Positions 1 through 500 of a stretch of DNA of 500 bases are shown piece by piece. Location: NCBI RefSeq assembly GCF_003334335.1, contig NZ_QOWQ01000182.1. One strand, written 5' to 3'. Position 1 is the first letter of the stretch. Every line of letters begins with the position of its first letter. The position numbers and the translations under genes are program-made. This stretch comes from Escherichia coli (GTDB taxonomy: Bacteria > Pseudomonadota > Gammaproteobacteria > Enterobacterales > Enterobacteriaceae). The notes under the pieces were generated by a model, which was given only the letters and a program-made list of their open reading frames with translations, searched no databases and was not told where the DNA came from.

Positions 1-470
1 TCCGTATCCCAGACCGGCTGCACAAAGATTTCGCCGTTAAACGCATGAACGCCCACACCTTCACGGATAAATTCCGTGAACGTGCGTTTTCCTTCCACGT
101 CGATCTCGCCAAACATCCCTTCTGCGTATTCCGACCAGGCCGCCTCCACCTCATCGACAAAGCTTTTTGCTGCGGTCTCCCGCATCCCCAGCCAGCGCCA
201 GTTCGGACGGTAGCTGATCAGAAACATATGCCCGACAATGTGATCCTTATGCAGAGCCACCGCATTAGCCGCTATTCCGTTATTGCGCACCAGATCATCT
301 GCCCGGGCATTCCCCAGACGCAACGCGGGTAGCAGGGCCGCATCGGCACTCTGCGCCGGTGGCAACCACTCAGCCATTTGCCCGCCAAATCCTGCACCGC
401 CCCCGTTGTAGCTGAGACTCTCACGAAGCGGAACGCCGTTCACATCAATCAGGACAGGCGTTCGTTTCAT
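1..470 (-). CDS. Phage portal protein, lambda gpB family; N-terminal 156 codons, 3'-partial (continues past window position 1)
   Basis: Reverse-complement translation from the ATG complementary to + 468-470 is open to the window edge: MKRTPVLIDVNGVPLRESLSYNGGGAGFGGQMAEWLPPAQSADAALLPALRLGNARADDLVRNNGIAANAVALHKDHIVGHMFLISYRPNWRWLGMRETAAKSFVDEVEAAWSEYAEGMFGEIDVEGKRTFTEFIREGVGVHAFNGEIFVQPVWDT. By-eye alignment with the lambda gpB N-terminus (recalled from memory) shows long conserved blocks: GxGFGGQ, DAALLP, GNARADDLVRNNG, AANA, LHxDHIVG, EVEAAW, KRTFT, IREGV, HAFNGExFVQ, WDT. A GGAG Shine-Dalgarno sits 7 nt upstream of the ATG. Confidence 0.9.
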   Translation of the reverse strand, partial: MKRTPVLIDVNGVPLRESLSYNGGGAGFGGQMAEWLPPAQSADAALLPALRLGNARADDLVRNNGIAANAVALHKDHIVGHMFLISYRPNWRWLGMRETAAKSFVDEVEAAWSEYAEGMFGEIDVEGKRTFTEFIREGVGVHAFNGEIFVQPVWDT

Positions 471-500
471 AACCTCACTCCCAGCGGACGACGGCGACGC
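467..500 (-). CDS. C-terminal end (10 codons plus stop) of the upstream gene, probably a gpW-like head-tail joining/head completion protein; 5'-partial
   Basis: Minus-strand frame ending at the TGA complementary to + 467-469 reads ...RRRRPLGVRL*. The arginine run followed by a short hydrophobic tail resembles the lambda gpW C-terminus (...QRRRGPAGFYV, from memory). The position immediately upstream of the portal gene and the 4-nt ATGA stop/start overlap match lambda W/B organisation. Only 10 residues are visible, so the family assignment is tentative. Confidence 0.55.
   Translation of the reverse strand, partial: RRRRPLGVRL
478..481 (-). promoter_or_regulatory. Shine-Dalgarno (GGAG, within a GGGAGTGAGG purine-rich stretch) for the portal gene
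   Basis: Minus-strand sequence 5'-GGGAGTGAGGTTATG-3' (+ 468-482); the GGAG is separated from the ATG by 7 nt. It lies inside the 3' end of the upstream coding sequence, as expected for translationally coupled genes. Confidence 0.5.

Follow-up and report, generated by a model that had tools for sequence, protein, structure and literature searches.

In phage lambda, the head–tail joining protein gpW forms a 12-mer ring in which helices and beta-hairpins build the ring and residue R32 clamps the DNA (PMC10721106). The top of this adaptor is positively charged and faces the negatively charged bottom of the portal, and the C-terminal arm of gpW (the C-arm, residues 55–68) augments the beta-sheet of the portal wing at gpB residues 320–324 (PMC10721106). 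The protein gpFII binds around the gpW hairpin barrel and not to the arm (PMC10721106, PMC11661146), and contact of the arm with either gpFII or the tail-completion protein is not described in PMC10721106. The last ~14 residues of lambda gpW are disordered in solution and do not stabilize the fold, yet PMC3208555 describes them as critical for connector assembly and cites Maxwell et al. (2000) for C-terminal residues being critical for activity. A preliminary description of the DNA examined here, made from the sequence alone, had started from the premise that the gpW C-terminus matters for head–tail joining, and this is what that paper reports for lambda. More distant proteins in the same role are the Ad1-type adaptors HK97 gp6, SPP1 gp15 and 80alpha gp49, which likewise form a dodecameric ring below the portal that receives a stopper protein, but which are larger and have two additional N-terminal helices. 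The folds of gpW and of these larger adaptors have been argued to be related (PMC11661146); we detected no sequence match of the gpW type described below to HK97 gp6, SPP1 gp15 or 80alpha gp49.

The closest described relative is the head completion protein gp3 of phage 21 (M81255, AAA32341), a 68-residue protein whose gene has terminase gene 2 on one side and portal gene 4 on the other. The gene considered here is the same one; its sequence and its name, phage 21 gene 3, date back decades, and public records already list its product as a gpW family head–tail joining protein. Over our window, the whole 500-nucleotide stretch of Escherichia coli DNA that was analysed, identity is 100% with Escherichia phage PhiR5_1 and 99.6% with phage 21 and a group of lambda-21-like coliphages, and each of these phages has the matching region annotated as a portal protein plus the head–tail joining protein W (Ad1 adaptor). 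Of 5426 complete E. coli genomes, 1861 (about a third) have matches to the window, 2974 in total and nearly all of them chromosomal, where the genome annotation likewise reads phage portal protein and phage head–tail joining protein. The window is thus a very common lambdoid prophage head module of the phage-21 type. In PhiR5_1 and phage 21 the module runs, as in lambda, from small terminase through large terminase, W, portal, protease/scaffold, decoration protein and major capsid protein to FI and FII, with the order Nu1, A, W, B annotated in both PV340545 and M81255. Enterobacterial-type lambda-like head genes also turned up in assemblies labelled as a Collinsella MAG (L095, its portal 100% identical to that of the E. 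coli phage), Chryseobacterium sp. 18061 (L116) and Algoriphagus pacificus (L131), where they probably reflect contamination or mis-binning.

The feature under study lies at the right-hand edge of the window, on the minus strand. Translation of window positions 1–499 gives RRRRPLGVRL from 499 to 470 and then a stop (codons CGT CGC CGT CGT CCG CTG GGA GTG AGG TTA, then TGA), and base 500 is the third base of a preceding Arg codon. In terms of the complete protein, positions 467–500 hold the final base of the R58 codon, codons R59–L68 and the TGA stop, and the visible RRRRPLGVRL is the C-terminal half of the gpW C-arm. The preliminary description had placed a gpW-like gene tail at exactly these coordinates, with exactly this peptide, and had compared it with a lambda ending, RRRGPAGFYV, that is also correct (W of NC_001416 ends QRRRGPAGFYV). 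The stop codon, at 467–469, overlaps the ATG start of the portal gene (phage 21 gene 4, homologous to lambda B), at 468–470, in the form ATGA, the portal start being the annotated CDS start in PV340545 and M81255.

Because the window cuts the gene, the full upstream ORF was taken from the identical PhiR5_1 sequence (L001:4828-5034), where it encodes 68 residues: MVTVAELQALRQARLDLLTGKRVVSVQKDGRRIEYTAASLDELNRAINDAESVLGTTRRRRRPLGVRL. This protein matches the Pfam gpW family (PF02831) with an E-value of 1.3e-22 over residues 4–67 of 68, PHROG 75 (head–tail adaptor Ad1) at 3.1e-29 over residues 1–68, and NCBIfam NF047331 with 50.3 bits, where the cut-off is 33. It also matches the solved structure of lambda gpW (PDB 1HYW; E 3.3e-15, residues 4–66), and the cryo-EM entries 8K38, 8XOW, 8XPM and 8XQB are matched alike. 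The gene sits between the large terminase gene and the lambda-type portal gene, and residues Q27-K28-D29-G30-R31-R32, including the DGRR motif, are invariant between the 21 type and lambda. The C-arm carries the basic run followed by P-x-G-hydrophobic-x-hydrophobic, as RRRRRPLGVRL. A ten-residue resemblance might have arisen by chance, but that is not the case here, because the full proteins align at E 1e-19 (all 68 residues against lambda gpW) in addition to the Pfam match. Retrieved in full and aligned to the gpW family, as had been proposed, the upstream ORF encodes a gpW-family protein and not a member of an unrelated family. We therefore consider it very probable that window positions 467–500 are the end of a phage-21-type gpW gene, encoding a 68-residue Ad1 head–tail adaptor, in a lambdoid prophage head operon; the analysis itself shows the sequence identity, the family to which the protein belongs, the order of the genes, the conserved motif and the overlap with the portal gene. 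That the visible residues might instead be the C-terminus of the large terminase subunit, the unrelated family that the preliminary description had named, has practically no chance of being right. The ORF that ends at the portal start has only 68 codons for amino acids and matches gpW profiles in three libraries, and the case is excluded because the large terminase gene, which overlaps the W start, has its end at L001:4844, which precedes the W stop by 190 bases, and encodes a different C-terminus (...LSGGVNGYSR); we found nothing in favour of it.

The remainder of the window is portal gene. From 470 to 1 on the minus strand, a frame of 156 codons stays open to the window edge, with the N-terminus MKRTPVLIDV and the opening sequence MKRTPVLIDVNGVPL, and represents the first part of a lambda-type portal protein whose full-length form is 61% identical to lambda gpB. 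Taking a score above the curated cut-off as the test of membership in the portal family (TIGR01539 portal_lambda / PF05136), we found that the 156 in-window residues alone reach 175.8 bits with TIGR01539 in NCBIfam, against a cut-off of 172.7. An Rfam scan of the window gave no RNA family match, and a promoter scan gave no promoter-like site. One terminator-like hairpin occurs on the plus strand at 60–89 (TTCACGGA...TCCGTGAA and then a stretch rich in T), antisense to the portal gene, where shuffled sequences led us to expect 0.3, and it is probably a chance occurrence. The plus-strand ORFs of the window were considered as genes and rejected, as they lie antisense to the portal gene and have nothing in their support.

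Compared residue by residue with phage 21 gp3, the protein is identical at 67 of 68 positions, and the gene shares its place between terminase and portal, its ATGA overlap and its annotated ribosome-binding site with phage 21 gene 3. The single difference falls at the very edge of the window, where phage 21 has C59 (TGT, L002:2961-2963 in M81255) and both the window (CGT, 497–499) and PhiR5_1 have R59. Cluster representatives with RCRRRPLGVRL also exist, and the number of arginines in the basic run is thus variable. Against lambda gpW (PDB 1HYW and 2L6Q; cryo-EM, for example 8K38), the protein has the same length and the same alpha/beta-hairpin/alpha core, and it is 50% identical overall, with invariant TGKRV and VQKDGRR blocks, the latter including R32. 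Gene order and the overlap of W with the portal start are also the same in lambda, and the partners of lambda gpW are 61% (portal) and 70% (FII) identical to the 21-type proteins. The two tails have R60, R61, P63 and G65 in common, five of the last ten residues are shared (R, R, R, P, G), and both proteins end hydrophobic-x-hydrophobic. The terminal three residues all differ (VRL versus FYV), such that in passing from QRRRGPAGFYV to RRRRRPLGVRL each of the three end residues that were critical in lambda is replaced. Positions 66 and 68 are hydrophobic in both proteins (V/F and L/V), and position 67 alone changes character, from Y in lambda to R here.

If the 21-type protein works as its lambda homologue does, twelve copies would bind beneath the portal once DNA is packaged, and their helical cores and beta-hairpins would form a ring, clamp the DNA end and create the binding site for gpFII. 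The otherwise disordered C-arm (55–68) would run up the portal and add a strand to the wing sheet at the position of lambda gpB 320–324. By this analogy the partner of the ten visible residues is the portal, and within RRRRPLGVRL the basic run would probably be part of the positive adaptor face that meets the negative portal base, the P-x-G would form a turn, and a hydrophobic-x-hydrophobic strand (V-R-L, against F-Y-V in lambda) would complete the arm. The corresponding docking geometry in the 21-type phage, with VRL on a portal strand of sequence TNSVT, is inferred from the lambda structure by homology; we found no structure or genetics of a 21-type gpW–portal complex. A fusion of the two proteins, portal-(GGGGS)x10-W, modelled with AlphaFold2 from a 16-row paired alignment, gave a structure too poor to bear on docking (mean pLDDT 51.7, pTM 0.38, the tail below 50); its W part shows the order H-E-E-H at a pLDDT of about 77–85.

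How the ending varies in the wider family bears on what the VRL/FYV difference may mean. A profile search of 1.84 billion representative proteins yielded 523 gpW relatives, of which 105 full-length representatives were examined. In 88 of the 105, two or more R/K stand in a row within the last 16 residues, and about 40 of the 105 end in G-[VFIL]-x-hydrophobic, the endings seen including GVRL, GVRF, GVSF, GVSL, GVIF and GFLF besides the GFYV of lambda. We also collected 44 W/portal pairs from phage records and species-representative genomes, among which G-V-x-hydrophobic tails accompany 21-like portals as well as distant Vibrio, Photobacterium and Shewanella types, and [GR]-F-[YFS]-x tails hardly occur except with portals that share at least 70% identity with that of lambda. 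The 21-type ending is therefore like those that are more frequent in the family, and GFYV of lambda is the less common variant. Some gpW-like ORFs lie 5′ of portals that are only ~26% identical (L132-L173, from alphaproteobacterial and betaproteobacterial loci) and end in ...RRRRWGTVATKGL, ...RRRRILTSASKGL or ...RPFASKDL, which suggests that this branch has a distinct arm type. Three gpW cluster representatives (P0065, P0094 and P0107) are frameshifted, with a normal start and end around a scrambled middle or with altered tails, and are likely sequencing errors or decayed prophage copies.

Such diversity invites the view that the tail drifts neutrally within a degenerate motif, so that any basic run followed by P-x-G-hydrophobic-x-hydrophobic would fit any lambda-type portal and FYV would simply be the less common version. 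The many endings listed above are what this view predicts, as are the 21-like G-V-x-hydrophobic tails of distant Vibrio-type and Photobacterium-type loci and the change of character at position 67 alone, from Y to R, with 66 and 68 remaining hydrophobic. Free drift fits less well with the behaviour of individual lineages. In a word-indexed homologue search, which returned 21-type relatives and fragments only and not lambda gpW, PLGVRL is kept in 33 of 34 full-length 21-type representatives of 90%-identity clusters, while the number of arginines varies and the core falls to about 79% identity; inside the lambda/N15 clade, GFY[VA] is nearly fixed. Each lineage thus holds its own ending under purifying selection, which lineage-specific fit describes better than free drift does. 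We place neutral drift a little short of an even chance.

The preliminary description had gone further in the other direction and proposed that the divergence of the tail may reflect co-variation with the portal or with a tail-completion partner. The second of these partners finds no place in the lambda structure, in which the arm pairs with the portal wing and no such contact is described (PMC10721106). For the portal, the proposal amounts to VRL versus FYV determining specificity and having evolved jointly with the portal that each serves, so that 21-type and lambda-type tails would not be interchangeable between portals. It has a structural rationale, in that the tail contacts the portal wing at gpB 320–324 (PMC10721106) and the portal strand aligned to these residues differs between the types, being AAPVR in the lambda, N15 and phi80 types and TN[SN]VT in the 21 type (TNSVT here). 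This strand moreover lies next to the 25 portal residues (lambda 298–322) at which conservation is lowest, a surface loop that leads into the strand with which the C-arm pairs and that is 12% identical, compared with 60% overall (L001:5031-6620 versus L003:2836-4434). That [GR]-F-[YFS]-x endings are nearly restricted to portals whose identity to lambda is 70% or more points the same way.

A comparison of tail variation with portals, which the preliminary description had recommended, shows that portal type and ending sort together in part, but the relationship is no tighter than that with the rest of the protein. In 36 distinct W/portal pairs, the correlation of tail similarity is rho 0.41 with that of the portal and rho 0.42 with that of the W core. 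There are also exceptions, namely L100, whose GVVL tail goes with a portal that shares 73% identity with lambda, and L124, whose GFCL tail goes with a distant portal. The F/V difference represents perhaps two or three evolutionary events, and thus carries no statistical power. The tail codons adjoin the portal gene, such that linkage predicts the same pattern from any breakpoint inside W; given this adjacency and the two nearly equal correlations, co-variation is not separable from linkage. Beta-sheet augmentation, furthermore, is largely backbone-mediated and tolerates side-chain change, and the hydrophobic-x-hydrophobic pattern is kept in both tails. An IMG/VR scan with a gpW alignment contributed no diversity for co-variation, as all 80 loci kept had the identical W protein, and of the contigs of four diverse gpW representatives three were short and lacked a full portal, the one complete portal being that of P0100 (L089).

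A match between tail and portal is also favoured by a natural mosaic, the gpW homologue STM2607 of the Salmonella prophage Gifsy-1. Its core is lambda/N15-like (78–80% identical) and not 21-like (52%), yet it ends PVGVRL, compared with PLGVRL here, and is followed by a 21-type portal (83% identical), with the mosaic junction near residue 50. In the Gifsy-1 sequence (L084, NC_010392, 6400–8100), the lambda/N15-like DNA patch comprises only about W nucleotides 18–152, and the C-terminus of the large terminase is, like the tail and the portal, 21-like. In lambda the large-terminase C-terminus is a portal-binding element (interaction table, PMC3224144), and the swapped patch thus has a peptide that contacts the portal on either side, the terminase C-terminus and the W tail, both of which stayed with their portal. 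With this mosaic, the differing portal strand and the structural rationale on one side, and on the other the equal correlations and a pattern that linkage explains, residue-level co-variation of tail and portal is plausible but not demonstrated, and we regard tails that are specific to, and co-evolved with, their cognate portals as a rather doubtful explanation of the VRL/FYV difference. A broader and, in our estimation, unlikely extension is that in lambda-like phages the C-arm of gpW, the C-terminus of the large terminase and the portal itself form a co-inherited, portal-matched set, within which the gpW core would be freely exchangeable with junctions at the core/arm boundary, as in Gifsy-1, and the last three residues of gpW would decide which portal type is docked. 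In the reading that we favour, the difference from lambda is ordinary variation in a conserved motif and was inherited along with the portal gene of the 21 type next to it.

Translation signals of the next gene lie in these bases as well. A GGAG Shine–Dalgarno sequence for the portal gene lies at 478–481 on the minus strand, inside gpW codons G65-V66 and 7 nt 5′ of the ATG, as transferred by sequence match from the ribosome-binding site annotated at 2979–2982 of M81255. The tail bases thereby also serve portal translation, through GGAG and the ATGA start, probably by coupling to translation of W, such coupling being suggested by the ATGA overlap. It might be argued from this arrangement that the terminal codons are shaped mainly by the portal translation signals (ribosome-binding site and ATGA overlap) and not by the needs of the gpW protein. 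Both GGAG and GAGG fall inside codons G65-R67, lambda has an AGGA tetramer in W codons A64-G65, an ATGA or GTGA overlap occurs at 32 of 41 distinct W/portal junctions, and a strict SD-like tetramer is found in the last 20 nt of W at 28 of the 41, mostly arising from the conserved x-G-V/F codons. The other 13 junctions, however, keep the peptide motif without a strict SD-like tetramer, and the residues are conserved through synonymous changes, with GVRL encoded as GGAGTGAGGTTA, GGGGTGAGACTG or GGAGTACGTTTA. The last three residues of lambda gpW are, in addition, reported as critical for the activity of the protein itself (PMC3208555). Since the peptide motif survives synonymous recoding between lineages, protein function is the main constraint on these codons, and the dual use is real; that translation signals dominate is quite unlikely.

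As a gene, the feature at 467–500 is of little significance, being an ordinary annotated feature of a ubiquitous prophage module. Its junction with the portal gene is a clear example of a functional protein tail that shares its bases with the ribosome-binding site and start codon of the next gene. Lambda and 21, with the Gifsy-1 mosaic beside them, make up a ready natural experiment for studying how an adaptor may be matched to its portal through a short disordered arm.
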